In this document: one piece after another, positions 16,450 through 64,000 of the stretch
Position numbering within the stretch: position 1 is the stretch's first letter
How the letters are laid out: every line of letters begins with the position of its first letter
Assembly: GCA_028718125.1 (NCBI GenBank)
Contig: JAQUMN010000005.1
Span: forward strand, 3,784-67,783
Direction of reading: 5' to 3'
Length of the DNA: 64,000 nucleotides
From: Kiritimatiellia bacterium
GTDB taxonomy: Bacteria > Verrucomicrobiota > Kiritimatiellia > JAAZAB01
Notes under the pieces: generated by a model
The model's database searches: none
What the model saw: only the letters and a program-made list of their open reading frames with translations
Told to the model about the DNA's origin: nothing
Program-made: the position numbers and the translations under genes

Positions 16450-17088
16450 ATGTTTACGATAATTAAAACGTGGATACGCAAAGTCTGGCGGCAATTCATT
16501 GGCCAACCTGACATGCCGATTGTTATTCGTCCGATTATAGAAGGCGGCGATAACAGGCACTGGTGGCGCCATAACGCGAAGAATCACGATGCGGAGGAAG
16601 ATCATTTCCGGCGGATGGACCCGACAGAGGCTGCTCGGGAAATCTTCGCGCCCAGTCATGGAGAGGAAGATAGTTACGGGTTTACACGGGTTGGTCCCGA
16701 TGGAACTGTTCCCCATCAGGGCGAACAGTGGGACCGTGAACACAATGCCATGCGGGTGAGACGGCGTAAGTTCATGGTGATCACATGCTCACAAGGCGTT
16801 GTCCGTTCTGCAGAGGAAATCAACGGTATTTGCAGTGAATGTCATGGAACTGAAGCAACCGTTGTTCGCTGCTCTGTTTGTGGCGTCATCCTCTGCCAGC
16901 TTCATGCCTATGTCTTGGAGCATCCTACCGGGAATGTGGTTTATTGCCGGACACATCTCGAAGAAGCCCAGGACAACTGGGACACATGGGAAGCCTATGA
17001 CGTTCAACGGGGAGTGCGGCCCAGTCGGAGTGTGTATCCTGGGCGACCGCACGCAGTGGCGCGATATTTACAAAAACAAGGTGGCTGA
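16450..17088 (+). CDS. Cys-rich (zinc-ribbon) hypothetical protein
   Basis: C-terminal CSECHG...CSVCGVILC...CRTH. Lies 13 nt after the membrane protein gene and directly before the ATPase gene. Confidence 0.45.
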   Translation: MFTIIKTWIRKVWRQFIGQPDMPIVIRPIIEGGDNRHWWRHNAKNHDAEEDHFRRMDPTEAAREIFAPSHGEEDSYGFTRVGPDGTVPHQGEQWDREHNAMRVRRRKFMVITCSQGVVRSAEEINGICSECHGTEATVVRCSVCGVILCQLHAYVLEHPTGNVVYCRTHLEEAQDNWDTWEAYDVQRGVRPSRSVYPGRPHAVARYLQKQGG

Positions 17089-17089
17089 A

Positions 17090-25945: not shown

Positions 25946-26286
25946 GACGATGGAGATAAGGTCATAGTTCGTATCGGGCAGCGGCCTGCGGAGCCAACCC
26001 TTTGGAAATACGAACTTCGGGTCTCATCTTCACTTCCCTATAATATTCAAGTATTTTCCGGGGAATCCTTAATCAAGTACCTGCGAAAAGTTCGTATGTC
26101 GCACTTGATGGTGCAAACAGATAACGAACATTATCGGTATCATTTGTTCTTCAGCGATCATAAATCACTTCCGTCGTTTTCCCTTCTGTTTTGTCATATC
26201 TCCATACCCCGACTGTCAGTCATCGTGGGATCCAACGAAAATAATGCCACTGGCAAGTGATCATAAGATGAGGCATATTGGTCGTC

Positions 26287-43316: not shown

Positions 43317-44189
43317 TCAGGCGTAACTCAGGAGTATTTGCCGCAGGGCGTTCCTATCAACCGGCTGCTCCGCCAAGGGCCCCGGCGCGCAGGCCGGGAA
43401 GTATGACTCGAAGGGCGCCCGGTCGTTTTTATAGAGGATCCCCACCGGAATCCAATCGTCCCATTGAAACGCCAGCTTCATGGCCGCCTCCCAGTTGGCG
43501 GGATCATGCGTGTTCGCCACGTCACGGCAGCGGGACTTGTACCAGGCAAAGGTATTCACCTTGTTGAAGGAGACGCACGGCTGCAGAATGTCGATCAGGG
43601 CGAAGCCCGGATGATTGATCCCCGCCTGGATGAGCCCGGCCAGATGGTCCGGCATGCCGGAAAAACCGCGGGCGGCGAAGCCCGCCTTCATGGCCACGGC
43701 CGTCGCCATGGGGTTGAAAGGCTGTGAGTGAACGCCATCGGGTTGGGCCTTGGTCACAAAGCCTTCCATGGAAGTCGGGCTGGCCTGTCCTTTGGTCAAG
43801 CCATAGATCTGGTTGTTGTGCGTCAGGACCGTCACGTGGATGTTCCGGCGGATGGCCGCGATCAAATGGTTGCCGCCTTCGCCATACAGGCAGCCGTCGC
43901 CGCTTTCGACAATCACCGTCAGCGCGCGGTTGGCAAGCTTGGCGCCCGTGGCCACCGGCAAGGCGCGCCCGTGCAGGCCGTTAAAGAGATTGGCGTTGAG
44001 GTAATGCGGGGCTTTGGCGGCCTGCCCGATTCCGGAAACGAACAACACCGACTCGGGCCGCAACTGACAGGCCACCAAGGCCTGTTTTACGGCCTTCAAG
44101 ATGCCGAAGTTGCCGCAGCCCGGGCACCAGGCTGTTTCATATTCGCCATAGTCAGGTAACGTCACCGGCGTATCAGGCGGTTGTTCCAT
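43317..44189 (-). CDS. korB: 2-oxoacid:ferredoxin oxidoreductase beta subunit (TPP-binding)
   Basis: CPGCGNFGIL...GDGCLYGEGGNHL: the TPP-binding motif of the KorB/PorB family. Confidence 0.75.
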   Translation of the reverse strand: MEQPPDTPVTLPDYGEYETAWCPGCGNFGILKAVKQALVACQLRPESVLFVSGIGQAAKAPHYLNANLFNGLHGRALPVATGAKLANRALTVIVESGDGCLYGEGGNHLIAAIRRNIHVTVLTHNNQIYGLTKGQASPTSMEGFVTKAQPDGVHSQPFNPMATAVAMKAGFAARGFSGMPDHLAGLIQAGINHPGFALIDILQPCVSFNKVNTFAWYKSRCRDVANTHDPANWEAAMKLAFQWDDWIPVGILYKNDRAPFESYFPACAPGPLAEQPVDRNALRQILLSYA

Positions 44190-45876
44190 GGGGTAACCTC
44201 CGCAAAATATACTCGGGTGTGAACGGCAACCCGTCGTAACGCAATACATGATGGGGAATGTGAAACCCGGTTTCCGCGCGGATTAAACGGGCGAATTGAC
44301 CCGTGGCGTTGCCCTCGATGGCAACGACCGTGGGCGCGGATGTCAGGGTATCAAGAAAATGCTTGGGGACCAGGGGCCACACCTGCGGAAAATGAAGGGT
44401 CCCGGCGCGGGTTCCTCCCGCGCGCACGATGGCAGCCGCCTCTTCCACGGCGCCGCGCGACGACCCCCATGAGACCAGCAGCAGATCCGGATGGGCATCG
44501 CCCTGAAAAACCGGGGGGCTGACCTCGGCTTCGAGGCCCAGCATTTTGTGCAGCCTTTTTTCCACCATCGCCCGCCGTACGTCCAGGTCCTCGGTAATGT
44601 GCCCGTCTTCCGTGTGCTCGTCGCTGTCGGCCACCACCCGGTGCCGGCTCAAACCCGGAATCAGGCGAGGTGAAATTCCGGTTTCTGTCAGGGCATAGCG
44701 TTTGTAGGGCGGGTTGTCCGGCTCGGGCGGGGCCGGCCAGTGCGGCGGCGTGTCCAGGGTAAACGGAACGATGTCGCGGTAGGTGTCGGCCAGGAACTGG
44801 TCCGTCAGCAGAAAAACCGGCCCCTGGTAACGGTCGGCAAGCAGAAAGGCCTTCTGGGCAAGTTCAAAACATTCCTCCACCGAGCCGGGTGTCAGGATGG
44901 CGCGCGGGAATTCGCCGTGCCCGGCGTGCAGGACAAATTCAAGATCCGCCTGTTCGGTCCGGGTCGGCAGCCCGGTGGCCGGCGCGGGGCGCTGGGCCAC
45001 CACGATGACGACGGGCGTCTCGGTCATGCCCGCCAGGCTCACGCTTTCCACCATCAGGGCGAATCCGCCGCCGGAGGTCGCCACCATTGCCGGCGCGCCC
45101 GCAAAGGATGCGCCGATGGCCATGTTTATGGCGGCAATCTCGTCCTCGGCCTGTTCCACGACCGTCCCCATCTTGCCCGCATGCTTAATCAGGGTCAGCG
45201 GGACGGTGGTGGCGGGCGTCATCGGGTAGAAGGCGCAGAACTTTACCCCGGCGTTCAGGGCGCCCAGGGCGAGGGCTTCGTTGCCGTTCAGCATGATCGG
45301 CGCGGCGCTCCGCGGCGGCGCCGGCAGGTTTCTAAAAGCGACCTTCTGGGCGCCGATCCAGTCATAGGCGCTTGAAATGGCCTTGCGATTGTCCTCGGCG
45401 CCTTCCGGATGCTTGCCGTCGAAAAAACTTTCCAGGGCGTGTTCGAGGGTCGCGCGCTCCAGTCCCAGAATGGCCCCCACGATGCCGCAGGCCGCCATGT
45501 TCTCGGCGGTCTTTGAGGCCAGGCGCTCGAAGGGAACGTTCAGAACCGGAACATCGCGGATGTCCTCCTTTTCGTCGGCGATGACCAGCGCCCCGGGCGC
45601 GAGCTCCGGCCGATGGCGCTGGAAGGTGTCGGCGTTCAGCGCCACCAGCAGATCGATCGGCTCCTGCGGTGCGGCGATCGGCGCGGAGGCCACCCGAATG
45701 GCAAACGTATTATGCCCGCCGCGGATGCGCGACATGTAGCTCTGGGTCGCCACAATGTGGTAGCCGGCTCGAACCAGGCTGCGGCAAAGCAGCTCGCTGA
45801 TGGTCACCAGGCCTTGCCCGGCCTCGCCGCCGATCACTACCTGCAGGGCGTTCGGTTGTTCGTTTGCGTTTGTCAT
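44173..45876 (-). CDS. korA: 2-oxoacid:ferredoxin oxidoreductase alpha subunit with fused gamma domain
   Basis: N-terminal gamma-domain motif VVIGGEAGQGLVT. Alpha-domain motifs (NGNEALALGALNAGVKFCAFYPMTP). The ATG at 45874-45876 was chosen over the longer track ORF. Confidence 0.75.
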   Translation of the reverse strand: MTNANEQPNALQVVIGGEAGQGLVTISELLCRSLVRAGYHIVATQSYMSRIRGGHNTFAIRVASAPIAAPQEPIDLLVALNADTFQRHRPELAPGALVIADEKEDIRDVPVLNVPFERLASKTAENMAACGIVGAILGLERATLEHALESFFDGKHPEGAEDNRKAISSAYDWIGAQKVAFRNLPAPPRSAAPIMLNGNEALALGALNAGVKFCAFYPMTPATTVPLTLIKHAGKMGTVVEQAEDEIAAINMAIGASFAGAPAMVATSGGGFALMVESVSLAGMTETPVVIVVAQRPAPATGLPTRTEQADLEFVLHAGHGEFPRAILTPGSVEECFELAQKAFLLADRYQGPVFLLTDQFLADTYRDIVPFTLDTPPHWPAPPEPDNPPYKRYALTETGISPRLIPGLSRHRVVADSDEHTEDGHITEDLDVRRAMVEKRLHKMLGLEAEVSPPVFQGDAHPDLLLVSWGSSRGAVEEAAAIVRAGGTRAGTLHFPQVWPLVPKHFLDTLTSAPTVVAIEGNATGQFARLIRAETGFHIPHHVLRYDGLPFTPEYILRRLPHGTTA

Positions 45877-46176
45877 GATGGCCCGCGTTCCCTGTTCCGC
45901 CGAATGCCAGGATCTTTTAGAGCCCCAGTATCCGCCCGGCGCCGGCGAACCGCGATCGGGATATACCTGATTTGGGCCGGCGAAATACCTGATTGCCCGG
46001 GCAGGCTTACGCCTTGCCCACCGCCAAAATCGCCCCGGCTGACGTGAGCGTATGGATGTCTTTGAGTCCTCAGTTATATCGAAGGGATTATTCAGGTTCA
46101 ACCTGATGGCGACTTTTAGGGTCCGGGTGCAGGCTATGACCCATCGGCAACCATTCTAATAAAGGAGGTCATCGTC

Positions 46177-46449
46177 ATGGCTACTGTCAGATCGAATTTT
46201 GTCGTGCCCAACGCCTTCGGCCTGCATGCGCGTCCATCCGCCCTATTCGCCAAAACAGCCGGCCGGTATAAAGCCTGCGTTCGCGTGAAAAACGGGGACC
46301 GCGTTGTCGACGGCAAAAGCATTCTCGAATTGTTGATGATCGGCGCGACACAGGGCTCCCGCTTGACGGTGGTCGCCGAGGGCTACGATGCCGATGCCGC
46401 CATGAAGGATATCCAAAACCTGTTTGCCACGGCGTTCGGCGAACAATAA
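46177..46449 (+). CDS. ptsH: phosphocarrier protein HPr
   Basis: 90 aa. GLHARPSA active-site His motif, and ...DGKSILELLMIGA (HPr Ser46 region). Confidence 0.85.
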   Translation: MATVRSNFVVPNAFGLHARPSALFAKTAGRYKACVRVKNGDRVVDGKSILELLMIGATQGSRLTVVAEGYDADAAMKDIQNLFATAFGEQ

Positions 46450-46529
46450 TTCCGGATGCCGCCCGGTCACGTTGCCCGGAGCGCCGGGCCACGGGCTTGC
46501 CCGGCGTCCCCTTGGCAAAGGAGGAACCC

Positions 46530-47477
46530 ATGCGCGCGATGGCGATCGAGGAATTTGGCGGCAGCGAGAAACTCAAGCCGATGGATTTACCCGTTCCGGA
46601 AATCACCGATCATGAAGTGCTGATCGCGGTGAAAGCCGCGGGCGTCAATCCGGTCGATTGGAAAGTGCGGGACGGATTGTTGCGCGAGCGATTGCCGCAT
46701 GCCTTTCCGCTTATTCCCGGCTGGGATGTGGCCGGGGTCGTGGAACGCGTCGGCTCCAAGGTCAAACGCTTTGCCGCAGGCGACGACGTGTATGCCTACG
46801 CCCGCAAGCCGGTCGTCCAGGGCGGGGCCTACGCCGAATTCATTGCCCTGCCGCTGGAAAATGTGGCGCGCAAACCCAAAACCCTGTCGTTTGAGGAAGC
46901 TGCGACCATCCCGCTTTCCGGTCTGACGGCCTATCAGGCGCTGTTCGATCGCGCCCGCCTGCGCTCCGGCGACGTCGCCTTGATTCATGCGGCGGCCGGC
47001 GGCGTGGGCGGGTTTGCCGTCCAATTGGCCAAGACCCGCGGGGCCGTCGTCCTGGGCACGGCCGGCAGCCGGAACCATGACTATCTGCGCAGCCTGGGCG
47101 TGGATGAACCCATCGATTACACGCAGGGCGACTTTTGCGAGGCGGTCCGCAAAACCCATCCGGAGGGAGTGGATGTCGTCCTCGACACCCTGGGCGGCGA
47201 TACCCTGGTGCGCAGCGCCAGCCTTCTCAAGAAGAAAGGCCGCATTGTGTCCCTGATCGATCCCGAAGGCATCGCCCGGTTAAAAGCCGGCGGCGTCAAG
47301 GCCCACTATCTCTTCGTTTCTCCCAATGCACGCGAGTTGACGAAGATCGCGGAGATTATCGAGAAAGGCCTGTTGCGGACAACCCTTGCGGCCACCTTTC
47401 CGCTGGCGGATGCCGCCAAGGCCCAGGTCATGAGCGCCACCCACCATGTCCGGGGCAAGATCGTTTTAATAATCTGA
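46530..47477 (+). CDS. qor: quinone oxidoreductase / MDR-family zinc-type alcohol dehydrogenase-like
   Basis: AGGAGG RBS. ...GVNPVDWKVRDG... and the AAGGVGGFAVQLAK NAD(P)-binding motif. Confidence 0.7.
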   Translation: MRAMAIEEFGGSEKLKPMDLPVPEITDHEVLIAVKAAGVNPVDWKVRDGLLRERLPHAFPLIPGWDVAGVVERVGSKVKRFAAGDDVYAYARKPVVQGGAYAEFIALPLENVARKPKTLSFEEAATIPLSGLTAYQALFDRARLRSGDVALIHAAAGGVGGFAVQLAKTRGAVVLGTAGSRNHDYLRSLGVDEPIDYTQGDFCEAVRKTHPEGVDVVLDTLGGDTLVRSASLLKKKGRIVSLIDPEGIARLKAGGVKAHYLFVSPNARELTKIAEIIEKGLLRTTLAATFPLADAAKAQVMSATHHVRGKIVLII

Positions 47478-47647
47478 TTCAGCGATGCCCGGCTCCCAGG
47501 CTATAGAGCAGGCTAAGAAAACGTGTGGCCGCGGCGCTCCGTATGGTCGCTCCGACAGAGCGGGCAGCTACACCAGGAAAAGGGCCACGACACGTGTTAA
47601 TCGGCTCTAGCTGGCGATCCGCCCGGGGTTTTGGTAAGCTCCAGTCC

Positions 47648-48571
47648 ATGAGCGTCAGCCGAAACCCAAAGTGGGTGCTTTTACTCCAGGAACTCCGGGC
47701 GCCTTTTTTCACGGCCTCCATTATTCCGGTGCTGGTCGGGAGCGCCTGTGCCTACTTTGGCACCGGCCAATGGCACTGGCCGCTGTTTTGCTGGACGGCG
47801 CTGGGCGTGATGTGTATCCATGCCGGCGCCAATGTGGCTAACGATTATTTTGATCACCGTAGCGGAAATGATGCGGCCAATACCGATTTCGTCCGCCCCT
47901 TCACGGGCGGAAGCCGGATGATTCAGGATAAGCAGTTAACCCCTCGCGAGGTCCTGACGTTGTCGCTGGGCTGCTTTGCCGCCGGCGGCGCGGTGGGCCT
48001 GTATGTGTTTTGGAAGGTGGGACCGCCGGTGATCTGGCTCGGGCTCATCGGTATGGCCGGGGGATTCTTTTACACGGCGCCGCCGGTCAAATTGTCGGCC
48101 CAGGGCCTGGGCGAACCGGTGATCGCGCTGCTCTTCGGCGTGCTGCCGGCCGTGGGCGCCTATTATGTCCAGACCAGGCGCTTTTCCGGCGACGTTCTGG
48201 TCCTATCGCTGTCGCTGGCGGTGCTGGTCTTGCTGGTGTTGTTCATCAACCAGTTCCAGGATTACCGTGCCGATGCGGCGACGGGCAAACGCACCTGGGT
48301 TGTGCGCCTTGGGTTGCGCCGGTCGGCCTGGTGCTACGCGGTGTTGGTGGCGCTCTGGCCGCTGCCCCTGCTGGTCGCCGTCGCGGCAGGCTGGTATCCC
48401 GCCTGGCTTGTGCTGGCCTTGGCGCCCGGCTTGCTCGCGGCCTGGACCGTGCCGCGCGTCTTGCGCTATTATGCCCATCCGCGGGTCCTGGCTCCCGCCA
48501 ACGCGCTCACCATCGCCATGCATGCGGGTGTGGGAATCGTCATGGTCCTGGTCTTGATCGGCGCCCGCTGA
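47648..48571 (+). CDS. menA: UbiA-family prenyltransferase (MenA-like)
   Basis: ANVANDYFDHRSGND Asp-rich motif. 8-9 TM. Lies next to a polyprenyl synthase. Confidence 0.65.
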   Translation: MSVSRNPKWVLLLQELRAPFFTASIIPVLVGSACAYFGTGQWHWPLFCWTALGVMCIHAGANVANDYFDHRSGNDAANTDFVRPFTGGSRMIQDKQLTPREVLTLSLGCFAAGGAVGLYVFWKVGPPVIWLGLIGMAGGFFYTAPPVKLSAQGLGEPVIALLFGVLPAVGAYYVQTRRFSGDVLVLSLSLAVLVLLVLFINQFQDYRADAATGKRTWVVRLGLRRSAWCYAVLVALWPLPLLVAVAAGWYPAWLVLALAPGLLAAWTVPRVLRYYAHPRVLAPANALTIAMHAGVGIVMVLVLIGAR

Positions 48572-48601
48572 ACCCGAAGCCCCGCACCCGGGATCGTATC
48601 C

Positions 48602-49646
48602 TCATGACGGCAAGCGCAACACGGCGTCCTTGAACGAACGCAGGGTTTCCCGGAATTCGCGCCGGATCGGCAGGGCCTGTAACCGGCGGTCTGCCTGTCG
48701 CGAAAGGCGCTCTATTTCCCGGCTGGCGCTCGCCAGCGCGCCCGACCGGATGATGATCGCTCCGACTCGGAGGATATCCGCCGGCGCATTATGGGTCCGG
48801 CGATACACCCGGTCCAACAGGCGCCGTTCCTCGGCTGAACATTGCCGGTAGGCAAACCATAGCGGGAGCGTCCGTTTGCCTTCACGGATATCGGCCAGCG
48901 GGGGCTTGGCGTTGCGGGTTGACCCGGCGCCGAAATCCAGCACATCGTCCTTAATTTGAAAGCCCCGGCCCACGCAAAGGCCAAACTCAAACAGCTGTGC
49001 CGCCGTGTGCCGGGGCGCGTGGGCCAGCGTGGCGCCCATGGCCAGCGGCATGGCAAAACTGTAGTGGGCCGTCTTGCGATCATATATGCGGTCAATGGCC
49101 CGGCGGCTCATGCGCTCCGGCGGCGTGAGGGTGTATAACAGCTCTTCCACCTCGCCGCATCCCGTGAACAAAGCGGAGCGGGTCAATTGTTCCAAGGCCA
49201 GTTGCTTGCGGGCCGGAGGCGCCCGGACGGCGAGGAAGGCATCGATGGCCAGGGTATAAATGGCGTCGCCGATGACCATGGCCAGGTCCGATCCGGTGAA
49301 TCGCCGGCCGGTGACGGTATTCAATTTCCGATTCAGCATGATGTGCAAAGCCGGCGCACCCCGGCGCTGGGCGGCGTGATCGATGATGTCGTCGTGGATT
49401 AGGATGAAGGCATGCAGCAGTTCCAGGGCCGCGGCCGAGGTGTATAGGTTGAACGCCGGCCTGGATTTGAATCCGAGATAACCCAGGACAAACAGAAGCG
49501 GCCGGATCCGTTTGCCGCCGCGCTGAAGGTAGCGGGCGATTAACCGGCGATAGGGCGCCGGCAGGCTCGCGAACGGGGGGGCCTGTATGCGCGACACGAG
49601 CCGGCCCAGCGCGCGGTCCACGTTGTTTTTGATTTTGTTCACCATG
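48602..49646 (-). CDS. polyprenyl diphosphate synthase (trans-isoprenyl diphosphate synthase)
   Basis: FARM LIHDDIIDH and SARM GFQIKDDVLDF motifs. Start MVNKIKNN at 49644-49646 was chosen; the track's N-terminal extension overlaps the next gene. Confidence 0.75.
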
Positions 49647-49708
49647 GTTTTCCGGTACCATACCGCTGATCCTTTGACTTTGACAACAACATTGTAAACC
49701 GTGGGCGA

Positions 49709-50839
49709 ATGAAACACCTGGTCATCATGGGCGGCGGATTTGGCGGGCTCTCGGCGGCCCGCTACCTTTCCCGGTATCGGGATGAAGTTGCTGTCACGGT
49801 GATTGACCGCAAGAACACATCCGATTTTCTTCCCTTGCTGCCGGATGTTGTCGGCGGACGCTTGCCCTCGTCGGCTGTCTCCGTAAACTTGCACGACGTG
49901 GCGCGCCGCCTGGGATTTGCCTTTGTTCGCGCCGAGGTTCGGCGCATCGACCCGTCCCGGCGCTGTGTCCTGGGCGAAGGGCGGGAGGTTCCTTACGACG
50001 CGCTGATTATGGCCGCCGGCAGCGAGCCTAATTATTTCGGCAACCAGGCGGCCCGGCAGGCGGCCTTGCCGCTGAACACCGCGCGCGATGCCGGCCTGCT
50101 GGCGCAGAAACTCCAGGAAGGCCGCTTCAAAACCTGCGTCATTATCGGGGGCGGGTATACCGGCGTCGAGATCGCCACCCATGTATGGCGCCGGCTGCGG
50201 GCGGCGCGGGAGGCCAAAGCTATCGTGATCGTGGAAGCGGCCTCTTCGATCCTGGGAGCGCTGCCCGATTGGATGAAACGCTACACGCTGAAAACATTGG
50301 ATACCCTGCAGATTGCCCATTTTGAAAACTGCCGGTTGGCTGGCATTGACAACGGCGGCGTGAGGCTATCCAACGGCCGGGTGTTCAACCCGGCCCTGCT
50401 AGTCTGGGCGGCCGGCGTCCAGGCCCCCGCCTGCGTCCGGTCATCGCCCTTTGCCAGGGGGGCCCAGGAGCGCATCCGGGTGGATGCCTTCCTGCGCGCC
50501 CGGGACGATGTGTTTGTGATTGGGGATGCGGCCGCCGTTATGGCGCGGGGCCATCCGTTGCGAATGTCCGTTCAATTCGCGATTGCCCAGGGCGCCTGCG
50601 CCGCGGCCAATGCGCTCCGGCATCTACGCGGCGCACGCTTGCGGCCCTATCGTCCGCTGGACCCCGGGTTTGTGCTTCCCATGGCCCACGGGCGCTCGTG
50701 CGGCACGGTGCTCGGCGTCCGGGTGCGCGGCCGCCTGCCCACGTTCCTGCATTATGGCATGTGCGCCTGGCGGCTGCCGGGTCTTGCCCAAAAAATAAAA
50801 ATGTGTAAACTGGCCGTGCAATCGGAACGTGTGTCTTAA
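49709..50839 (+). CDS. ndh: type II NADH dehydrogenase (NDH-2) / FAD-dependent pyridine nucleotide-disulfide oxidoreductase
   Basis: HLVIMGGGFGGLSAA and VIIGGGYTGVEIA dinucleotide-binding motifs. Confidence 0.7.
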   Translation: MKHLVIMGGGFGGLSAARYLSRYRDEVAVTVIDRKNTSDFLPLLPDVVGGRLPSSAVSVNLHDVARRLGFAFVRAEVRRIDPSRRCVLGEGREVPYDALIMAAGSEPNYFGNQAARQAALPLNTARDAGLLAQKLQEGRFKTCVIIGGGYTGVEIATHVWRRLRAAREAKAIVIVEAASSILGALPDWMKRYTLKTLDTLQIAHFENCRLAGIDNGGVRLSNGRVFNPALLVWAAGVQAPACVRSSPFARGAQERIRVDAFLRARDDVFVIGDAAAVMARGHPLRMSVQFAIAQGACAAANALRHLRGARLRPYRPLDPGFVLPMAHGRSCGTVLGVRVRGRLPTFLHYGMCAWRLPGLAQKIKMCKLAVQSERVS

Positions 50840-50863
50840 CCGGTAAAAAAAGGAGGAGCGCCC

Positions 50864-51301
50864 ATGAAAGGATCCTGTGCCTGTTTTGACTGCCGGAGCG
50901 CCGCCGTGGCCTTGGTTCGCTGGGGGTTGGGCCTTCTTTTCCTGATCGGCGGCATCAACAAGCTCATGCATCTGGGCGGCTTTGTTAACGCCTATCTGCT
51001 GCCGGCCTTTGCCAACACGTATTTACCGGCCGGCTTGGTCGCCGCCTACGGCTACGCCCTGCCGTTTGTCGAAGTCTTGCTGGGCGTTGCCCTGGTGCTG
51101 GGCCTGTGCCGGAATAGCGCCTTGTTTGTCACGGGGCTGACCTTGATTTCACTCGCCTTCGGACAGATTCTCCTGCAAAAATTTGATGTGGTTTCCCAGA
51201 TCCTGGTCTACCTGGCCATGACCGGCGCCGTCCTGTTCCTGGGCGACTATGACCGGTGGGTTGTGGGCTGCAGCTGCAAATCGTCGGAGCCAAAGTCCTG
51301 A
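50864..51301 (+). CDS. DoxX-family membrane protein
   Basis: 145 aa, 4 TM. LIGGINKL motif typical of DoxX. Confidence 0.6.
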   Translation: MKGSCACFDCRSAAVALVRWGLGLLFLIGGINKLMHLGGFVNAYLLPAFANTYLPAGLVAAYGYALPFVEVLLGVALVLGLCRNSALFVTGLTLISLAFGQILLQKFDVVSQILVYLAMTGAVLFLGDYDRWVVGCSCKSSEPKS

Positions 51302-51451
51302 TAGGGTGACAGGATTAACAAAGATTGGCAGGATTTTTAGGCGAGAAAAATTAAACGAATTCTTTTTGCGTCTTAATCCTGTCTAACAACTCCGTGTTGT
51401 CTTGTTTTAAATAGCGGTTCCCGGTGTTCAAGGCATTACTCGGCGGGCCGG

Positions 51452-51781
51452 CTATTTTTCCATTTCGAGTCCGGCGTCTTGCCATCCTTTTTTGCCGGCT
51501 TTGAAATCGAGGGTGTGCTTATACCCTAGATCCAGGAGCGTGCGCGCCGCGCGCGTGCTGGCCGTGCAGGCGTATCCCCCGCAATACGTGACGATCGTGG
51601 CGCGCTTGTCCAGCAACGTCGGCGCCAGCTGGTCGATTTTATCCACCGGGATATTGATCGCGCCGGGAATGTGGCCTTCGTGATAGCTTTCCCCGGAAAG
51701 CGTGTCCACCAGCGTGAACGCTTCCTTGTTTTCCTTCATTTCCATGAGCGTTTCCAGGGTGATGAGCGTTAATTTTTTCAT
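51452..51781 (-). CDS. rhodanese-domain protein
   Basis: 109 aa. LVDTLSGESYHEGHIPGAINIP and catalytic CGGYACTAST loop. Confidence 0.7.
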   Translation of the reverse strand: MKKLTLITLETLMEMKENKEAFTLVDTLSGESYHEGHIPGAINIPVDKIDQLAPTLLDKRATIVTYCGGYACTASTRAARTLLDLGYKHTLDFKAGKKGWQDAGLEMEK

Positions 51782-57161: not shown

Positions 57162-57236
57162 TCCGCGATAGCTCAATGGTAGAGCGGGTGGCTGTTAACC
57201 ACTAGGTTGCAGGTTCGAGCCCTGCCCGAGGAGCCA
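57162..57236 (+). tRNA. tRNA-Asn (anticodon GTT), with two acceptor-stem mismatches
   Basis: Hand-folded. D-arm GCTC/AATGGTA/GAGC. Anticodon arm GGTGG/CTGTTAA/CCACT. Variable loop AGGTT. T-arm GCAGG/TTCGAGC/CCTGC. 3' acceptor strand CCGAGGA + G + CCA. 5' acceptor strand TCCGCGA gives G4-A69 and A7-C66 mismatches. Confidence 0.6.
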
Positions 57237-58925
57237 GCCCCTTGGCATTACGAACTTATCCCCCTCCTTCGGGGAAACGCCTGTAAATAGGTCGGTTGCG
57301 TAAAGGGTCATGTTAACCAGATACCATTTAGTTCGTATTCGCGCCTTGAATACTCCTGGTTCAGCGGACATCTGATCCTTTTCCGGGTCAAAGTGGTTAA
57401 CAGTCACTTCCTTCACCAGAAGGCGAATTAACTCCTTCTGATCCTCCGGCGGCAACACCCGAAATACTTTTCCGAACTGCAGCAAGCTGTCGGCAATCAC
57501 CCTGGCATCTGTAACCACTTTCTCCCGGTACTGAATGTCGATCTTGACCTTCTCCCGCTCCAACTCAACCTGCCGTTTTTCCTCGGCCAACTGTTCCGCT
57601 TCTCGGATCATTTCATCGCTGATTCGTTTTGCGCCCTCTTTCTTCGCTGTGTCCATGAAATTCTTGACGGCTACAGACAGCTTATCGAACTGCTGGTCAA
57701 GCTCGGCCAGTTTGGCCTTCAGTGGTTTGATACCCTTATTCTTGGTCTCGTCGGCCGCTTTAATGGTCGCCTTAATGATATCCGGATGCTTCCCGATCTC
57801 GCCGATGTACCCGATGATCAGATCCTCAAATGGCCGCGCCGGGATGTTCCGAACCGAGCACTTGGCCTCTCCGCCTTCTTTTGAGACGTTCGTACAGGTG
57901 TAGTATAGGTATTGATTGCCGTTCTTATCCTTCTTGCCGGCGGGCTTTGGGGTGAGGCTGAGGCCACAATGACCGCATTTCAACAGGCCCTTCAATAGAT
58001 GAACATGCCGGTCCTGATGCAGGAAGATCGGGCCTTCCTTTTCTTTTGGACGCAACGCCTCGTTTGCCGACTGCCAGAGTTGCTGAGACACGATGGCAGG
58101 ATGTTCGGAGGGATATTCCTTGCCGCCATTGATGACGACCCCCTTATAGATTGGATTCGCTATCATCTCCTGTATACGACCACTGACAAACCTCTTATCG
58201 CCAACCACCTTGGTTGATCCGTCTTTTTGAACAAGGATTCGCTTTCGCGTGCGCCACCCCATCTTATTTAGGTACTTGGCCACGGCCGTCGGATTCTTGA
58301 GCTGGACCGCCTCGTCGAATGCTTTCGTCACAAGTTCTTGCTCGGCTGGTTTCAGGATAAGCTTCTGGTTTTTTTTGTCGTAGTCGTATCCCGTTGGCAC
58401 CCAGCCGCCGTTCCACTTGCCCTGCTGGGCGCGCTGGATGAGCTTATGCCGTGTGCGCTCACGGGTCTGTTCGCGCTCGAATTCCGCAAAGCTCAGAAGC
58501 ATATTCAGGAAAAGCATTCCATGCGGTGTAGCCGTGTCAATCTGCTGTGTAGCGCTGGCAAAGTTTACATTGTGCCGCCGGAGCTCTTCCCATAACCCAT
58601 AGAACTGCCGAAGTGATCGCGACAGCCGATCGAGCTTATAGACCACAATCATATCAACATTGCCGGCCCTTGCCTCGGCCAGCAGATTGTTAATCCCTGG
58701 CCGGTCCATCGTACTCCCCGAATAGCCGGAGTCTTCGAGATGCAGAGCGGACACCCATCCCTCTTCCTTGTGAATGGCAATATAGTGCTCGCAGATGTCC
58801 TTTTGCGCATCAAGTGAACTATACTCCCCCTGCGCCTGGTCGTCTGTTGATACGCGGGTATAGATCGCACATCGAACTGTTTTTGTGGCAACTTGTCTTG
58901 CAGATTGTTTAGAGTTCGTATTCAT
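57195..58925 (-). CDS. large serine recombinase (integrase)
   Basis: N-terminal resolvase catalytic domain (AIYTRVSTDDQ, VVYKLDRLSRS). Recombinase domain. Zn-ribbon (CGHCG...C..C) and a long coiled coil. The last 14 codons are encoded antisense to the tRNA-Asn 3' half. Confidence 0.85.
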   Translation of the reverse strand: MNTNSKQSARQVATKTVRCAIYTRVSTDDQAQGEYSSLDAQKDICEHYIAIHKEEGWVSALHLEDSGYSGSTMDRPGINNLLAEARAGNVDMIVVYKLDRLSRSLRQFYGLWEELRRHNVNFASATQQIDTATPHGMLFLNMLLSFAEFEREQTRERTRHKLIQRAQQGKWNGGWVPTGYDYDKKNQKLILKPAEQELVTKAFDEAVQLKNPTAVAKYLNKMGWRTRKRILVQKDGSTKVVGDKRFVSGRIQEMIANPIYKGVVINGGKEYPSEHPAIVSQQLWQSANEALRPKEKEGPIFLHQDRHVHLLKGLLKCGHCGLSLTPKPAGKKDKNGNQYLYYTCTNVSKEGGEAKCSVRNIPARPFEDLIIGYIGEIGKHPDIIKATIKAADETKNKGIKPLKAKLAELDQQFDKLSVAVKNFMDTAKKEGAKRISDEMIREAEQLAEEKRQVELEREKVKIDIQYREKVVTDARVIADSLLQFGKVFRVLPPEDQKELIRLLVKEVTVNHFDPEKDQMSAEPGVFKARIRTKWYLVNMTLYATDLFTGVSPKEGDKFVMPRGWLLGQGSNLQPSG

Positions 58926-59157
58926 ATACACATGCATAGTATCATATTACGAACTATATGCAACCATATTTATCATACAAAATTTTCTGACCACGACTCC
59001 GCCAGCATCAGCTGGATATACGACTAACCACCGAGTGTCTGTCCTGAGCGAACCTATGGTGAGTAAAATCGAACCAGTCGAAGGGCCGATGGATCGCCAA
59101 GCACCAGATTTTAACCGGCTGGTTCTGAAATAGCCGAAGATTGAATAGCGACCTTGC

Positions 59158-62100
59158 CTATTTGCTCTCGCCGGTGAGCATACGCCAGACTTGATGATAA
59201 TCGTTACCTGTCATAGCAGCATCTTTCGGAACCACTGTCTGCCAGTCCTTGACGGTGAGAGAACGGATAAATTCCCTGGCAATCGCCGGGGTCTGGTTGT
59301 CCTTGCCGCATTTCTTGAAGACTTGCCCAAGCGGAACGGCAACACTCCGTGGTACAGAATGCATTCTCATCATAACTGCTTCATGCGTGGGTACACCGTA
59401 GTAGATCATGGCTGGTAGTGCGTTGATTATGCGCTTCTGTTCTTCGTCGAGTTTCGAAAAGTCAATGCCACTTGTTGGAAGTTTGCTGAGTGTAGCAAGC
59501 CCCCACGTAGCGGACAGGCATAAGTGTCCGTAGATAGCTCTGCATGCTTGCGAGATCGCATCTGTAATGTCACGCGTTCTTGCTCCCTGCTTCTGAAAGT
59601 ATTTTTTCCCAAGAGTTTCTAATGAAGCTCCATTAACCCAGTCGGACGTAAGACCGGCGAGAACCTTGTGTTCCAATCCGTGCGGAGCAATTCGCTGAAG
59701 CTGGGCGCTGATTTCAGGTAAACGGAGCATGATTCCCATCAGACTCTGAAACGCCACGTTGTTGCGCCCAAAGAGGCCTTCTGGGCACCAATCTCTCGGA
59801 GCGACTTTGTTGTGGAGTGCGCCAATCGCACATCGCAACGTTTCTGGAGAGAATCCCGTAGCATCAGCTAGTGTTGCGAGGCTTTTTTGCTTGGATATCC
59901 ACACGCCGAATTGCTTAGTTACTGACAGGAGAGTTTTTGCCTTGTCAGGTGCTTTTCTCTCCAGGCTGCGATATCCCAGGGTGTTCCTGAGTATGCGCTC
60001 AGCTTGAGAGACAAAACTCTCAGGCGATTGAGTTTGGTTGTATATGTGAGCCAAATACCCCCAAAATGCATGCCATTCCGGCTTGTTCAAGACAGAATCA
60101 AAACCAATGGATGTCCCAGTCTGCAGAACCTGATCGATTAGCGATTCGAGAATGGAAACGAGTTCACGGTGTTTCTCGCACACGTAAGATTCAATCTGGC
60201 GTCGATGCGCTGTATCCTTAAACTTCGTGGCAATCCCAATGACTCCAAGGCTTTCTTGAAAGATTCTACCGGCACGGCCCGCAAGATTCCAGAAATCGTG
60301 AGTGGGCATTGGTATATAAGGATAATTCAAAGATGCCAAGAACACTGCCGAAACAGGGAAATTGATGCCTTGTGCAATAGTGGTTGTCGCGCAAATAGCG
60401 CGAACATCATTCTCTTCGGCCAATTGTTCAATCAGCGCGCGGGCATCATCAGAAAGTCCAGAATGATGCACAGCAATGCCGTGTTCAAGCATGTCACACA
60501 ATTCAAAGGTTGGACTTATTTCCGTCTTGAGAAACTTCTGCACCAAACGGATAGAGTCGGGAACCCGGTCAAGTTGACCAAGAGCGGAACATAGTGATCG
60601 AGCCATTTGCCATGCTTCGCCTTGGTCGGTAGTAATCGCGAGCACCAATGAACGTGGTTTCTCGGCAAAAACTTTCGCCATCGCTGCCGTTTGGAGATAG
60701 AGAGTATTCGACACGCGGCTGAATGTCTCATCCAAGATGCCCGGTGATCCAACTTGGAACTGACCATCCAGATACATAGTGCCGGGAGTAGTGTGGAGGG
60801 TATTGAAGTGTAAGGACCATTTTCGGGGCTTCTCCCCTTTTTTTGAGTGGAATATGCCAACAATACGCTCGTTTGGTTGCCAAGCGGTAACACCTATGGA
60901 TGCTGAAGCTTCAATATCAGGCGAGAGCCATTCAGCAATCTCTTTTGCATTAGGAATAAAGGGCGTTAACAAGAGAAAACTGGCCTTTGCGCAGTCACGC
61001 TTAACCGTTGCCAAAAGGAGCTCCAGTTTAAGGCCACGGGAGGATTCCTGTATGTTGTGTGCTTCGTCAATAACAACCAGAGCAAGAGGTCGCTGGACTT
61101 TGTTCTGGCGAATTACGAGATCAAGCTTCTCGGGAGTAGTTACCAAGACATGAAATCCATCTTTGGCTGAGAGGATATCGTCCTCAAATGTGTCGATTTC
61201 TATAGCACCCGATAATTGTTCAACACGTATTCCGACGGCGCCCAGTTCCTTGCGCAATTGCCGTGTCTGTTGCGCCACGAGGGCTCGCGTCGGAGCCGTG
61301 TATGCGACCCAACCCCCATCTTGGGCAAACTGATTGAGCGCCTGCAATACTCTGAAAATGGCCAAGAATGTTTTTCCCGCAGAAGTTGGCAAATTGATAA
61401 CTATTGAACGTTTAGCCGGATCAAGAAGCCCTTGCTCCAACAATGCCGCTCGTTGCGGAGGTAACAGCTCAAACAAATTTCGAGCGTCTCTGCGCGTGAC
61501 ATATTGAACATACTTTGTCACGCGTGAGTTCACCACATGAGCTATACGCCAGATTGAACTCTGAACCATGTGCCGGGCTGTTAGATGTAGCCATCTTAGG
61601 AGCACCTCGAGTTCAGCATCTCTTGCATTTCTCGCCGCTTCCGAAGCCTTATCGAAATGGGTGTCTATCTGCACATCGACGTCGTTTGGTGTTCCCTGCA
61701 TGAGAAATGTCGCGGTCATCTCGGTTGCGGCAGCCCAGTGGTATAGAGCCGCTAGTGTCCATCCTGCGAAGGATTTCTGCTCTTCCGACAGAGCGTTTAA
61801 GTGTTGCTCTTCGTATTCCGCTTGATCTTTGCGGAGCCCAGCCACCACTTCGGCAACCCGCCCCAAATCGTTCCAGCCATCCTTACGAACCAAGCATATC
61901 CAAGCCTCAAACATGCGAAAAAGAATGCGTTTGTCCCATGGAACGTCGGCCACATTAGGGGCAATTACAGCTACATCGTGTTCCTTGATCCATCTACGAG
62001 CATCCGACCATCGTTTGCCGACATATGCAAAGGCAATAAGTTTAAGAACGTGATATACACGAAATTCATGAGGAACGGGAAGAGGAAGAGTTCGCATGAT

Positions 62101-62472
62101 GGAGAAGGCCGCAGAGCAGTCAATTTCGGCTTCCGCCCTAGATGAAGCGTTATCGTCTGTCGGACGAATCAAAGCGAACCAGGATTCGAGAGCCGCAATC
62201 TCCAGTGCCTGAAGAACTTTGTTTGTCGCTTCCGCTTCTTTGGTTGCATCGTAGGGCTGGAGGTTCAACAGAGATCCTATGGCATCTGTCACAAGATGCT
62301 TGTCGGACTCGTCAATCGCATGCTGAATCGTATCTTGCCCAATGACGTCGAGTGCCCAGTGGGAGGGTATTTTCACAACTTCACCTTCTGACCGGATGAT
62401 ACATTGTCTTGCCATTCTTTGATTGGGATTGAAACGTATAGCGCGAGCAACAGAATATCCGGGGTATCGCAC
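59158..62472 (-). CDS. DExH-box SF2 helicase, HamB-like (Hachiman candidate)
   Basis: Motif I NLPTSAGKT, motif II VVIDEAHNI, motif V CATTTIAQGINFP, motif VI NLAGRAGR. About 1.1 kaa with a long N-terminal non-helicase region. Probable true start at 62415 (MARQCIIR), overlapping the upstream gene. Confidence 0.5.
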   Translation of the reverse strand: MRYPGYSVARAIRFNPNQRMARQCIIRSEGEVVKIPSHWALDVIGQDTIQHAIDESDKHLVTDAIGSLLNLQPYDATKEAEATNKVLQALEIAALESWFALIRPTDDNASSRAEAEIDCSAAFSIMRTLPLPVPHEFRVYHVLKLIAFAYVGKRWSDARRWIKEHDVAVIAPNVADVPWDKRILFRMFEAWICLVRKDGWNDLGRVAEVVAGLRKDQAEYEEQHLNALSEEQKSFAGWTLAALYHWAAATEMTATFLMQGTPNDVDVQIDTHFDKASEAARNARDAELEVLLRWLHLTARHMVQSSIWRIAHVVNSRVTKYVQYVTRRDARNLFELLPPQRAALLEQGLLDPAKRSIVINLPTSAGKTFLAIFRVLQALNQFAQDGGWVAYTAPTRALVAQQTRQLRKELGAVGIRVEQLSGAIEIDTFEDDILSAKDGFHVLVTTPEKLDLVIRQNKVQRPLALVVIDEAHNIQESSRGLKLELLLATVKRDCAKASFLLLTPFIPNAKEIAEWLSPDIEASASIGVTAWQPNERIVGIFHSKKGEKPRKWSLHFNTLHTTPGTMYLDGQFQVGSPGILDETFSRVSNTLYLQTAAMAKVFAEKPRSLVLAITTDQGEAWQMARSLCSALGQLDRVPDSIRLVQKFLKTEISPTFELCDMLEHGIAVHHSGLSDDARALIEQLAEENDVRAICATTTIAQGINFPVSAVFLASLNYPYIPMPTHDFWNLAGRAGRIFQESLGVIGIATKFKDTAHRRQIESYVCEKHRELVSILESLIDQVLQTGTSIGFDSVLNKPEWHAFWGYLAHIYNQTQSPESFVSQAERILRNTLGYRSLERKAPDKAKTLLSVTKQFGVWISKQKSLATLADATGFSPETLRCAIGALHNKVAPRDWCPEGLFGRNNVAFQSLMGIMLRLPEISAQLQRIAPHGLEHKVLAGLTSDWVNGASLETLGKKYFQKQGARTRDITDAISQACRAIYGHLCLSATWGLATLSKLPTSGIDFSKLDEEQKRIINALPAMIYYGVPTHEAVMMRMHSVPRSVAVPLGQVFKKCGKDNQTPAIAREFIRSLTVKDWQTVVPKDAAMTGNDYHQVWRMLTGESK

Positions 62473-63161
62473 TCAGAAAGAGTCTTTGCGCGCGCACGAA
62501 GATCGTCCTCATGAGGGGCTGTTGTACGAACCAGGATGCCGGTCAGCCAAATAGTCTTCCTGTCGCCAAGATAGGCCTTGCAGGCCGTACGATAATCGCT
62601 CTCCCACGCCTGACCTTTATGACGAAAGCCCAAGTATCGAACTAACGTGTCTGTGACATCTGTGTTACGCGCAAGCGTTTCAATTTGAGCAATCATACCA
62701 CTTCGCCCGTAAAGAACACCTGGGGGTTGTGTCGAATCCTCTGAAGTCTTTACCTCGCCAAAGGCAAAAGCAACAGTGGTGCCCTTGTTTCTCAAACCGA
62801 CAATGTCAGCGCCAGCTTGACTTGCATTAGGATTCCGAAGGTCCCGGCCACTGTGCCATGGAAAAATACATTCATGATGTTCTTCAAGGTAACATTCTGC
62901 AACAGCTTCGCCTATACGCCAGGTTGGGACGATTTGTGATTGCATGAGTCTGGCGAGATTCTTTGCCTCAAAGCGAGTCAAAACAAGAGACGTGATAGAA
63001 CTTTCAAGTTCTTCTTTCGCAGTAACATCTGCGACACGATTGGCCACAACGCCGGAAAGAGCCATCCGGGCTTCATTAAGTGCAAACTGCCACCCAGAAG
63101 CAGATACTTTCCCATGAGTGATATCGAATGCTTTGCGGCCTCTTGGAATTGTCGTTTTCAT
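62373..63161 (-). CDS. HamA-like protein with PD-(D/E)xK-type motif (DUF1837-like; tentative)
   Basis: 262 aa, located immediately upstream of and overlapping the helicase. ...GADIVGL...VAFAFGEVKTSED fits a D...E.K nuclease core. Assignment is by synteny and motif only. Confidence 0.4.
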   Translation of the reverse strand: MKTTIPRGRKAFDITHGKVSASGWQFALNEARMALSGVVANRVADVTAKEELESSITSLVLTRFEAKNLARLMQSQIVPTWRIGEAVAECYLEEHHECIFPWHSGRDLRNPNASQAGADIVGLRNKGTTVAFAFGEVKTSEDSTQPPGVLYGRSGMIAQIETLARNTDVTDTLVRYLGFRHKGQAWESDYRTACKAYLGDRKTIWLTGILVRTTAPHEDDLRARAKTLSECDTPDILLLALYVSIPIKEWQDNVSSGQKVKL

Positions 63162-63802
63162 TCCGATATCTTCTTTTCTAGAACCTTATCACAATCAGGC
63201 TTGCCTATGCCACCTTCGACTGAGGAAAATCCCATAGAAAGCAAGTTGCGGTTGGCCTCATGGTTGAACGTGAAACGGGGTTTGTTCCATTTGGAGATTA
63301 CACGGCAGAGGGTTTCGGTTTTACTGCCTGGGGCGGCGTAAGCAACAAAGACTTTCTCGGCCAGAGCGGAAATGATCAGATTACGCTTCAATGCCGTTTC
63401 TGCCGTGGCTCTCTTTGTCCTGCCATCAAATGGCGATGCTAGGATCATTCGGCCTTCCTCCATAAGCTGGCGGAATTCGGCAGGAATTCGAACGGGAAGA
63501 CCGCGGCCCATTACTACGCACACTGGAACTGATGCTCGGAGAAGAATATTGAGGACTTCCCGTTCGACCGGCGAGTGAAACCCGCCAATGACAGGCGTGG
63601 ACAAGGCAATAAAGTTCTTAGCAAGATCATAGCATTGAAGAATTAGACTGCCGGGGCACTTGACTGAGCAAAGAAACGCAGTATAGGAACTGGCAAGCAA
63701 TTCCTCGGGACCGTACCCATGAAACGTTATATGCAACCGACATGGTTTTTTGAGTGGTCCCATTTGAGCGGTATTTTCAAAGCTGTGTTTCCAAGGGATC
63801 AT
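63158..63802 (-). CDS. DprA/Smf-like Rossmann-fold (SLOG superfamily) protein
   Basis: ...ALSTPVIGGFHSPVEREVLNILLRASVPVCVVMGRGL...ILASPFDGRTKRATAETALKRNLIISALAEKVFVAYAAPGSKTE parallels the DprA core (SE..pg..p....F..RNRii..ls...lvvea...SGsl). 4-nt overlap with the HamA-like gene. Confidence 0.5.
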   Translation of the reverse strand: MIPWKHSFENTAQMGPLKKPCRLHITFHGYGPEELLASSYTAFLCSVKCPGSLILQCYDLAKNFIALSTPVIGGFHSPVEREVLNILLRASVPVCVVMGRGLPVRIPAEFRQLMEEGRMILASPFDGRTKRATAETALKRNLIISALAEKVFVAYAAPGSKTETLCRVISKWNKPRFTFNHEANRNLLSMGFSSVEGGIGKPDCDKVLEKKISE

Positions 63803-63999
63803 AAATCTTCTCGCGTAAGTAATTGCCGCAAGGTCTTCCAGTTCGTATCGCCTCTTTTCCCGACAATGTATCGTCGTTTACCAGCACCTTGCTGCCCCTT
63901 GCGGCCAAGAAGAGCGTCGATTGTCTTGTAGAAAACGCTTTGCTTGGGGATGAGACGGAATGCAAATTCGCGTTGGCCGGCGAGACGGATAAAGAACAC
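63799..63999 (-). CDS. hypothetical small protein (may continue the operon upstream)
   Basis: 66-aa ORF overlapping the DprA-like start (ATGA). No recognised domain. Confidence 0.25.
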   Translation of the reverse strand: MFFIRLAGQREFAFRLIPKQSVFYKTIDALLGRKGQQGAGKRRYIVGKRGDTNWKTLRQLLTREDL

Positions 64000-64000
64000 T

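Follow-up and report, generated by a model that had tools for sequence, protein, structure and literature searches.

At the right-hand end of a 64,000-nucleotide stretch of DNA from a Kiritimatiellia bacterium (assembly GCA_028718125.1, contig JAQUMN010000005.1; hereafter the window), a HamA-like nuclease gene and a HamB-like helicase gene lie directly beside a gene for a DprA-like protein. Our best explanation, to which we give a probability of about 0.8, is that this end of the window is the edge of a low-GC integrative defense island at a tRNA-Asn gene and that it carries two separate modules. The first, the nuclease-helicase pair, appears from sequence models and predicted structures to be a very divergent, sequence-isolated clade of Hachiman, already catalogued as the candidate system PDC-M23. 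The second, a putative restriction-modification (RM)-like helicase-methyltransferase module, lies mostly beyond the window and is the one with which we place the DprA-like gene. Gene content, folds, conserved catalytic motifs, and linkage statistics carry this reading, which departs from the original prediction, made from the letters of the DNA, chiefly in detaching the DprA-like gene from the pair.

The nuclease-helicase pair

The pair lies on the minus strand, with a gene for a 262-aa PD-(D/E)xK nuclease (62373-63161) followed by one for a 1072-aa superfamily 2 helicase of the Ski2/Hel308 type (59158-62376). Both products match the PADLOC hidden Markov models (HMMs) that together define PDC-M23, the nuclease PDC-M23A at 7.3e-82 (residues 4-255 against model positions 2-258 of 265) and the helicase PDC-M23B at E=0 and 1311 bits (residues 37-1102 against positions 4-1060 of 1060), so that on sequence the adjacent genes are assigned to that candidate. 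The original prediction had recognized a Hachiman-like pair here, and in this it holds up well.

Structure prediction links the 262-aa protein to HamA. Its AlphaFold2 model is confident (pLDDT 94.4, pTM 0.92), and the significant matches that Foldseek returned from the PDB were to Escherichia coli ECOR31 HamA alone (8vx9_A and 8vxy_A, TM scores of 0.54 to 0.58; for 8vx9_A, E 1.1e-5, probability 1.0, and TM 0.54). The D..E.K motif noticed earlier is present as GADIVG (D119) and GEVKTS (E136 and K138). In an alignment of 80 homologues these three residues are invariant within the local motifs GADLVG and GEVKTS, as are E85 and P146-P147, and a further motif, G84-E85...E89, precedes the D-ExK site. 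E136 and K138 fall two residues from the positions of E138 and K140 in ECOR31 HamA, mutation of which abolishes defense (PMC12278908). Aligned by hhalign with a single canonical HamA, the family profile scored weakly (E 0.006, probability 6%), but the G[DE]xxE, GxD, and ExK motifs were paired; we count this as supporting evidence only. As modeled, then, the protein would have the HamA fold and a conserved D-ExK nuclease site.

The helicase gives a similar picture. It has the Pfam domains DEAD, ResIII, and Helicase_C, and motifs I, II (DEAH), V, and VI are present as had been noted, as PTSAGKT (K335), DEAH (D437-H440), TTIAQGINFP, and GRAGR in the numbering of the 1072-aa protein; motif I (G334-K335-T336), motif II (D437-E438-A439), and motif VI (G700-R701 and G703-R704) are invariant in 60 homologues. 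After PDC-M23B, its next-best PADLOC matches are HamB models, up to 6.7e-60 for HamB1, one of them spanning residues 253-1072. The AlphaFold2 model (pLDDT 83.4, pTM 0.82) has E. coli HamB as its top three Foldseek matches in the PDB, and the alignment to 8vx9_B is full length (E 5e-28, query TM score 0.74, 1195 aligned columns). Hel308, Hjm, and Pol-theta helicases rank after HamB, with query TM scores of 0.43 to 0.48 (0.46 for Hel308) that cover the core only. The predicted structure thus points to a complete HamB architecture, with the N-terminal HamA-binding region and the C-terminal domains.

Linkage of the two genes was surveyed in the best 80 of 368 loci found by scanning one genome of each GTDB species with a degenerate pattern, each locus taken with 10-kb flanks. 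The helicase gene (B) lies directly downstream of the nuclease gene (A), on the same strand, in 77 of the 80, and the contigs of the other three end there; the junction is a 4-nt overlap in 49 of the 77. As in Hachiman, the hamA-type gene stands just upstream of the hamB-type gene, and the two are co-directional and co-inherited. Type I HsdS is the upstream neighbor of the pair in 17 of 76 loci, and HsdR, HsdM, RhuM, or T5orf172 in several more. In the closest relative with a long contig, a Peptococcaceae metagenome-assembled genome (B 58% identical), the pair is embedded in an Hma system, with HmaA on one side and the DUF1156 methyltransferase on the other; in another close relative the same HmaA-type helicase (helix-turn-helix [HTH] + SNF2 + NOV_C) precedes it, and in a third it adjoins an Mrr-family gene and a tyrosine integrase. 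The helicase family itself exceeds 3144 clusters at 90% identity and includes members from Vibrio parahaemolyticus, V. vulnificus, V. cholerae, Enterobacter hormaechei, and Providencia.

Because of the A-B linkage, the RM and Hma neighbors of its relatives, and the breadth of the helicase family, we regard the pair as a widespread, mobile, defense-context cassette rather than a housekeeping helicase with a chance neighbor. This context agrees with how the PDC systems came to be proposed, as 145 candidates drawn from genes nested in BREX, DISARM, Type I RM, and Hma systems by "guilt-by-embedding," with PDC-M23 as cassette CAS_00096 (Payne et al. 2024, bioRxiv 10.1101/2024.01.29.577857). The name PDC-M23 occurs only in a supplementary table and was not found in the text of any searchable paper. 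A tblastn search of PLSDB plasmids with the 262-aa and DprA-like proteins returned no match. The pair by itself adds little, since PDC-M23 can already be searched for in PADLOC. With HamA and HamB as best structural matches, however, the candidate gains a specific mechanism that experiments can probe, down to individual catalytic residues, and orthologues in culturable Vibrio, Enterobacter, and Providencia would make the experiments straightforward.

The junction between the two genes needs one correction. An overlap of 100 nt between them is a product of choosing the longest open reading frame (ORF) for the helicase, extending to 62472; the public call is 1072 aa. Because of that call, and because the same 4-nt junction occurs in 49 of 77 related loci, the start is most likely the GTG at 62376, which leaves a 4-nt GTGA overlap with the nuclease gene. 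An alternative start is the ATG at 62415. Otherwise the minus-strand ORFs are found as first listed, at 59158-62472, 62373-63161, 63158-63802, and 63799-63999.

The DprA-like gene and its helicase-methyltransferase module

Upstream of the pair, on the same strand, a 214-aa ORF (63158-63802) encodes a stand-alone DprA-like Rossmann protein of the SLOG superfamily. The DprA/Smf-fold assignment made earlier is borne out by Pfam DNA_processg_A, narrowly for the protein itself (3.9e-7; 29.9 bits, where 29.6 are required) and clearly for the family consensus (2.2e-17). PADLOC matches it to PsyrA at 7.3e-11, over model positions 120-294 of 398 alone, and to ShosA at an E of 0.026. Most homologues, at 170 to 210 aa, leave the first ~30 residues of the ORF uncovered. 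The true start may be the Met at residue 14 (~63763), which would abolish a 4-nt overlap with the gene upstream.

That upstream gene is cut by the edge of the window. A public 13.3-kb Logan contig (L001), identical (100%) to window positions 58431-64000 over 5570 nt, extends 7.75 kb further and shows that what had been taken for a separate 66-aa ORF (63799-63999) is the C-terminal end of a 388-aa nuclease gene of the phospholipase D (PLD) family, HKD and NgoFVII-like, whose 3' end occupies 63799-64000 on the minus strand (L001 and L084 gene calls). The domains annotated in the nuclease are PLDc_2 and RE_NgoFVII, with weak PADLOC matches to DrmC and ZacB. Further upstream, L001 encodes a 1082-aa MmeI-like methyltransferase and a 1129-aa PLD(HKD)-SNF2 helicase. 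The methyltransferase matches PADLOC REase_MTase_IIG at 1.6e-252, and also DrmMI and PglX, with the annotations MmeI_Mtase, Eco57I, and DUF7814; the helicase matches "HKD+Snf2" at 1.1e-49 and DrmD, with domains PLDc_2 and Helicase_C. On these matches the genes form a Type IIG/MmeI-like module, a putative N6-adenine methyltransferase with a target-recognition region beside a helicase-nuclease, for which methylation and restriction are predicted. Across window and L001 the array comprises six genes, all co-directional, with 4-nt overlaps at four of the five junctions and a short gap at the fifth, between methyltransferase and PLD nuclease. A promoter and terminator scan of 56.8-64 kb did no better than shuffled sequence and was uninformative on operon structure.

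The same arrangement recurs elsewhere. The DprA-like family occurs at more than 573 loci, and we mapped the 80 best metagenome loci encoding orthologues (42-58% identity). Of the 32 loci that have 3 kb or more of sequence on the upstream side, 22 have an MmeI-like methyltransferase gene ahead of the DprA-like gene on the same strand, and the HKD-SNF2 helicase precedes the methyltransferase in 15. The spacing of methyltransferase and DprA-like gene varies from -138 to +7503 nt, with 11 loci adjacent and 14 containing inserted cargo, and the viral contigs L177 and L178 have the same helicase-methyltransferase-DprA-like order. The recurrent array (L085-L164, L177-L178; in window numbering continued through L001, 63158-71612) consists of helicase, methyltransferase, 0 to 7.5 kb of cargo, and DprA-like gene. 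Among the cargo are Schlafen/AlbA_2-HATPase_c_4 proteins (in 14 loci), ABC ATPases, and an RmrA-like HTH-peptidase plus PIN; some loci also have GmrSD-type enzymes on the downstream side of the DprA-like gene. No description of this array with its cargo slot was found in the searchable literature. It is a more promising lead than the pair, albeit mostly outside the window, and it may be a further example of defense genes nested in RM-like operons.

The Schlafen/AlbA_2-HATPase_c_4 protein deserves separate mention. It is 480 to 560 aa long, with a C-terminus that is sometimes Fic-like or a winged HTH, and its gene lies ~70 nt upstream of the DprA-like gene in most of L111, L112, L120, L124, L134-L137, L143, L147, L155, L161, and L164; in the 14th locus, L127, the distance is ~2 kb. 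It could be a second preferred partner of the DprA-like gene.

The island at the tRNA-Asn gene

The left boundary of the island is likely the tRNA-Asn (GTT) gene at 57162-57236 on the plus strand (ARAGORN), which is also the likely integration target. The GC fraction falls from ~0.63 at 35-57 kb to ~0.50 at 57-64 kb, and the step lies exactly at this gene. On the minus strand at 57195-58937 is the gene for a 580-aa large serine recombinase, as had been recognized earlier, with all three expected Pfam domains above threshold and in the right order (Resolvase 5.6e-40, Recombinase 5.1e-14, Zn_ribbon_recom 4.9e-12). In NCBIfam the protein resembles CcrB and XisF, with scores under their cut-offs. 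The recombinase had been placed beside the tRNA; the proximity is real, but the last 42 nt (14 codons) of its ORF are in fact the opposite strand of the tRNA gene itself. The integration junction seemingly lies inside the tRNA-Asn gene and shapes the C-terminus of the recombinase.

Weighing the evidence

Several results weigh against the reading set out above. The 262-aa protein has no match to Pfam HamA/DUF1837 (PF08878) at E<=0.1; at E<=0.01 the domain is matched by 6 of its 80 relatives (best 1.3e-5), and although HamA is the sole Pfam match of the family consensus (E 4.4e-4), its 20.6 bits stay below the gathering threshold of 25, so that neither protein nor consensus carries a PF08878 domain at family threshold. 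Sequence searches of PDB chains with the protein and with an 80-sequence profile found nothing relevant and did not reach the solved HamA. Run against 1.84 billion representative proteins, the family profile gave 688 matches at E<=1e-3, all from its own clade and none a canonical HamA. Homology to HamA is argued mainly by predicted structure and motif order, and the anti-phage role of PDC-M23 is a candidate function suggested by analogy. The right-hand end of the island lies outside the sequence covered, and the repeat of the tRNA 3' end that would mark the far attachment site is absent from the 7.75 kb beyond the window in L001. Helicase-methyltransferase cores without a DprA-like gene occur in plasmids with homologues of the methyltransferase, namely Synechocystis pSYSX, a Picosynechococcus plasmid, and Pelobacter pPRO1. 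In the window the DprA-like gene shares 4 nt with each of its neighbors, and the overlap with the 262-aa ORF had been noted correctly from the start. Finally, in one of the metagenome loci (L119; contig Ga0187893_10009608, 1-10537) a canonical Hachiman, with HamA1 at 3.6e-112 and HamB1 at E=0, abuts the DprA-like gene.

On the first of these points the original prediction had itself named a lack of DUF1837 similarity as telling against it. At the Pfam threshold that similarity is indeed lacking, yet fold, motif order, and partner still place the 262-aa protein with HamA; of the model searches it proposed, Pfam DUF1837 fails while HamB models match, and PADLOC already knows the pair as PDC-M23. 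The Hachiman fold family, judged by these models, seems to reach beyond what the Pfam HamA model detects. The plasmid cores limit what can be said of the DprA-like gene: because it is linked in 22 of 32 loci, yet missing from three plasmid cores, it is an accessory of a subset of helicase-methyltransferase modules. In two of these cores (L165, Synechocystis sp. PCC 6803 pSYSX, 43696-51513, and L166), the homologues are at ~40% identity, a VapC-family toxin gene with a small upstream ORF is embedded between helicase and methyltransferase, and a DUF2513 gene stands in place of the DprA-like gene.

A bolder version of the same idea is possible, if unlikely: that helicase, methyltransferase, and DprA-like protein constitute an undescribed three-component RM-like system with a cargo slot, in which the DprA-like protein would serve as antitoxin or against autoimmunity and Hachiman-type pairs would be recruited to read RM-made ends or nicks on invading DNA, so that the defense would have two layers.

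What separates the DprA-like gene from the pair is distribution. The original prediction had proposed that it extends Hachiman as a sensor and had suggested a survey of whether such genes recur upstream of hamA homologues. That survey, once run with an HMM built from 68 orthologues of the DprA-like protein, turned up no DprA-like gene in the 8-10 kb around the pair at any of 89 other PDC-M23 loci (80 genome loci, 4 closest relatives, and 5 viral loci). Conversely, none of the 80 best DprA-like loci encodes a PDC-M23A homologue and only one encodes any HamB-like helicase; the family travels with the MmeI-like methyltransferase instead. In L119 the Hachiman occupies the cargo slot between MmeI-like methyltransferase and DprA-like gene of the same module type, so the two Hachiman-type pairs that abut DprA-like genes, there and in the window, flank the gene from different sides and come from widely separated clades. 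By an informal estimate, a single Hachiman among the well-covered DprA-like loci is about what defense-island clustering would yield. We read both adjacencies as embedding rather than partnership and hold back a small reserve for a functional link, in which Hachiman may sense nicks from the RM-like module or the DprA-like protein may damp autoimmunity.

Such a link could be local and not conserved, with the DprA-like protein as a single-stranded DNA (ssDNA) binder that limits the nicks and ssDNA of the RM module which would otherwise trip the Hachiman-like pair. The tight six-gene array, the activation of HamAB by nicked or damaged DNA (PMC12278908), the ability of ShosA to bind ssDNA and counteract DNA damage (PMC11961720), the relief of restriction reported for Helicobacter pylori DprA (discussed below), and the two independent pairs abutting a DprA-like gene all speak for this. 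We nevertheless consider it improbable: the three-way arrangement is not conserved, and embedding and defense-island clustering account for the adjacency. Still less probable is the arrangement first proposed, in which the DprA-like protein would be a dedicated third component of a Hachiman variant that binds ssDNA or a nucleotide and signals to the nuclease-helicase pair. The overlap of its stop codon with the start of the 262-aa gene, the PsyrA match together with the pairing of DprA homologues with helicase toxins in PsyrTA and RqlHI (PMC9122126), and the Hachiman in L119 lend it some color, but the counts of 0 of 89, 0 of 80, and 1 of 80 are against it, as are the position of the L119 pair on the other side of the gene, in a slot filled elsewhere by unrelated genes, and the expectation from clustering.

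Two further readings can hardly be entertained. The view that the 214-aa gene serves this organism as its true competence dprA has in its favor the NCBI annotation "DNA-processing protein DprA" and a DNA_processg_A match barely above threshold, but we reject it on an equivalog score of 18.8 bits against a TIGR00732 cut-off of 191, a Pfam match confined to the Rossmann core (residues 55-160, with no other domain detected in the 214 aa) in place of the SAM, Rossmann, and sometimes C-terminal DNA-binding architecture of competence DprA, a location in a mobile low-GC island, and orthologues placed in RM-like operons. That the helicase is a housekeeping Hel308/Lhr/Ski2-type repair enzyme beside an unrelated 262-aa gene, with no defense system at all, is suggested by a plain sequence search that ranks Slh1, ASCC3, Brr2, and Hel308 in the PDB (4e-39 to 1e-24) above HamB (1.9e-23) and by partial Hel308 similarity in NCBIfam, but is rejected on linkage and fold: the NCBIfam scores are far under their cut-offs (140 against 887 bits), the full-length fold match goes to HamB and not Hel308, the pairing with a HamA-fold nuclease is strict, and the pair sits in a low-GC island here and within RM or Hma operons elsewhere.

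Proposed mechanism

Under the two-module reading we infer all biochemical activities by analogy, along with defense against phage and what the DprA-like protein does. Module 1 would be RM-like and combine an HKD(PLD)-SNF2 helicase-nuclease with an N6-adenine methyltransferase of MmeI-like (Type IIG-like) kind; here it also includes an embedded PLD nuclease and ends in the DprA-like accessory gene. Module 2, a sequence-isolated Hachiman clade, would consist of the 262-aa nuclease and the 1072-aa helicase. If it works as E. coli HamAB does (PMC12278908), its helicase would keep the PD-(D/E)xK nuclease inactive while surveying intact DNA. Phage-made ssDNA, 3' ends or overhangs, or nicks would stimulate helicase ATPase activity and movement, and this movement could free or activate the nuclease, leading to indiscriminate DNA degradation and abortive infection.

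As for the DprA-like protein, its most likely role, proposed from the analogy with ShosA, PsyrA, RqlI, and H. pylori DprA, is to bind ssDNA and moderate the helicase-nuclease/methyltransferase module to which it belongs, whether in the manner of an antitoxin, as a repair aid, or as a methylation assistant. The H. pylori protein reportedly stimulates methyltransferases and inhibits restriction enzymes. DprA homologues are antitoxins in ShosTA, PsyrTA, and RqlHI (PMC9122126), ShosA binds ssDNA and promotes repair (PMC11961720), and H. pylori DprA is reported to alleviate the restriction barrier for incoming DNA (PMC3597690). DprA-like proteins may here again act as moderators of nucleic-acid-targeting toxins, and the reassigned gene points to a recurrent helicase-methyltransferase-DprA-like arrangement with a variable internal slot.

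Relation to known systems

As a member of PDC-M23 the pair differs in nothing substantive. Both proteins match the models end to end, the A-then-B order and the overlapping junction are the same, identities to other members are 36-49% for A and 45-59% for B, and the pair is again inside or beside RM-type systems, with the difference that it follows an HKD-SNF2/MmeI-like module and is not inside a Type I RM or Hma system. With Hachiman (ECOR31 HamAB, PDB 8VX9) it shares the tightly co-inherited two-gene cassette of nuclease then helicase, a predicted HamA fold with D-ExK at nearly the same positions, and a predicted full HamB architecture that includes the N-terminal region absent from Hel308. 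By contrast, A and B are only 12% and 16% identical to ECOR31 HamA and HamB, A falls under the Pfam HamA threshold, and PADLOC keeps PDC-M23 as a separate candidate.

The 214-aa protein resembles the DprA homologues of PsyrTA, RqlHI, and ShosTA in its Rossmann domain and in sharing an operon with helicases. ShosA has a SAM and a Rossmann domain (PMC11961720), whereas the protein studied here has the Rossmann core alone, the array is without a RecQ-like or phosphoribosyltransferase (PRTase) partner, and the conserved partners of the family are the MmeI-like methyltransferase and the HKD-SNF2 helicase. Membership of PsyrTA or RqlHI was rejected: the adjacent helicase is HamB/Ski2-like, no PsyrT is among its 25 best PADLOC matches, and the adjacency is found in none of the 89 loci. 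ShosTA was rejected as well, on a ShosA E of only 0.026 and the lack of a PRTase in the six-gene array.

Among helicase-nuclease/methyltransferase systems, the upstream genes recall Type IIG/ISP-like enzymes, the DrmD and DrmMI of DISARM, and the BREX-related "BR type 2" through their matches to HKD+Snf2, DrmD, REase_MTase_IIG, DrmMI, and PglX. They differ in that no large co-directional putative DUF499 ATPase gene lies directly upstream of the helicase in the mapped loci, as judged without DUF499 or DUF3780 HMMs. A DprA-like terminal gene and a cargo slot are not described for any of the known systems in the searchable papers.

Other features of the window

A second low-GC stretch lies at the other end of the window. 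At ~5-34 kb GC is ~0.50, against 0.63-0.66 next door, and the stretch is probably a second conflict or mobile island. It includes, on the plus strand at 26278-28749, a gene for an 823-aa protein in which the archaeo-eukaryotic primase domain of TOTE conflict systems (PF22548, 2e-98) is fused to a ResIII/Helicase_C helicase, and, near this TOTE-type protein, a 666-aa HerA-like (DUF87) ATPase gene (16799-18799, plus strand). Between the two low-GC regions, in a high-GC host segment, a 2841-aa ORF (34621-43146, minus strand) has GH94 supersandwich and catalytic domains like those of cyclic beta-1,2-glucan synthases or phosphorylases and is unrelated to the defense pair.

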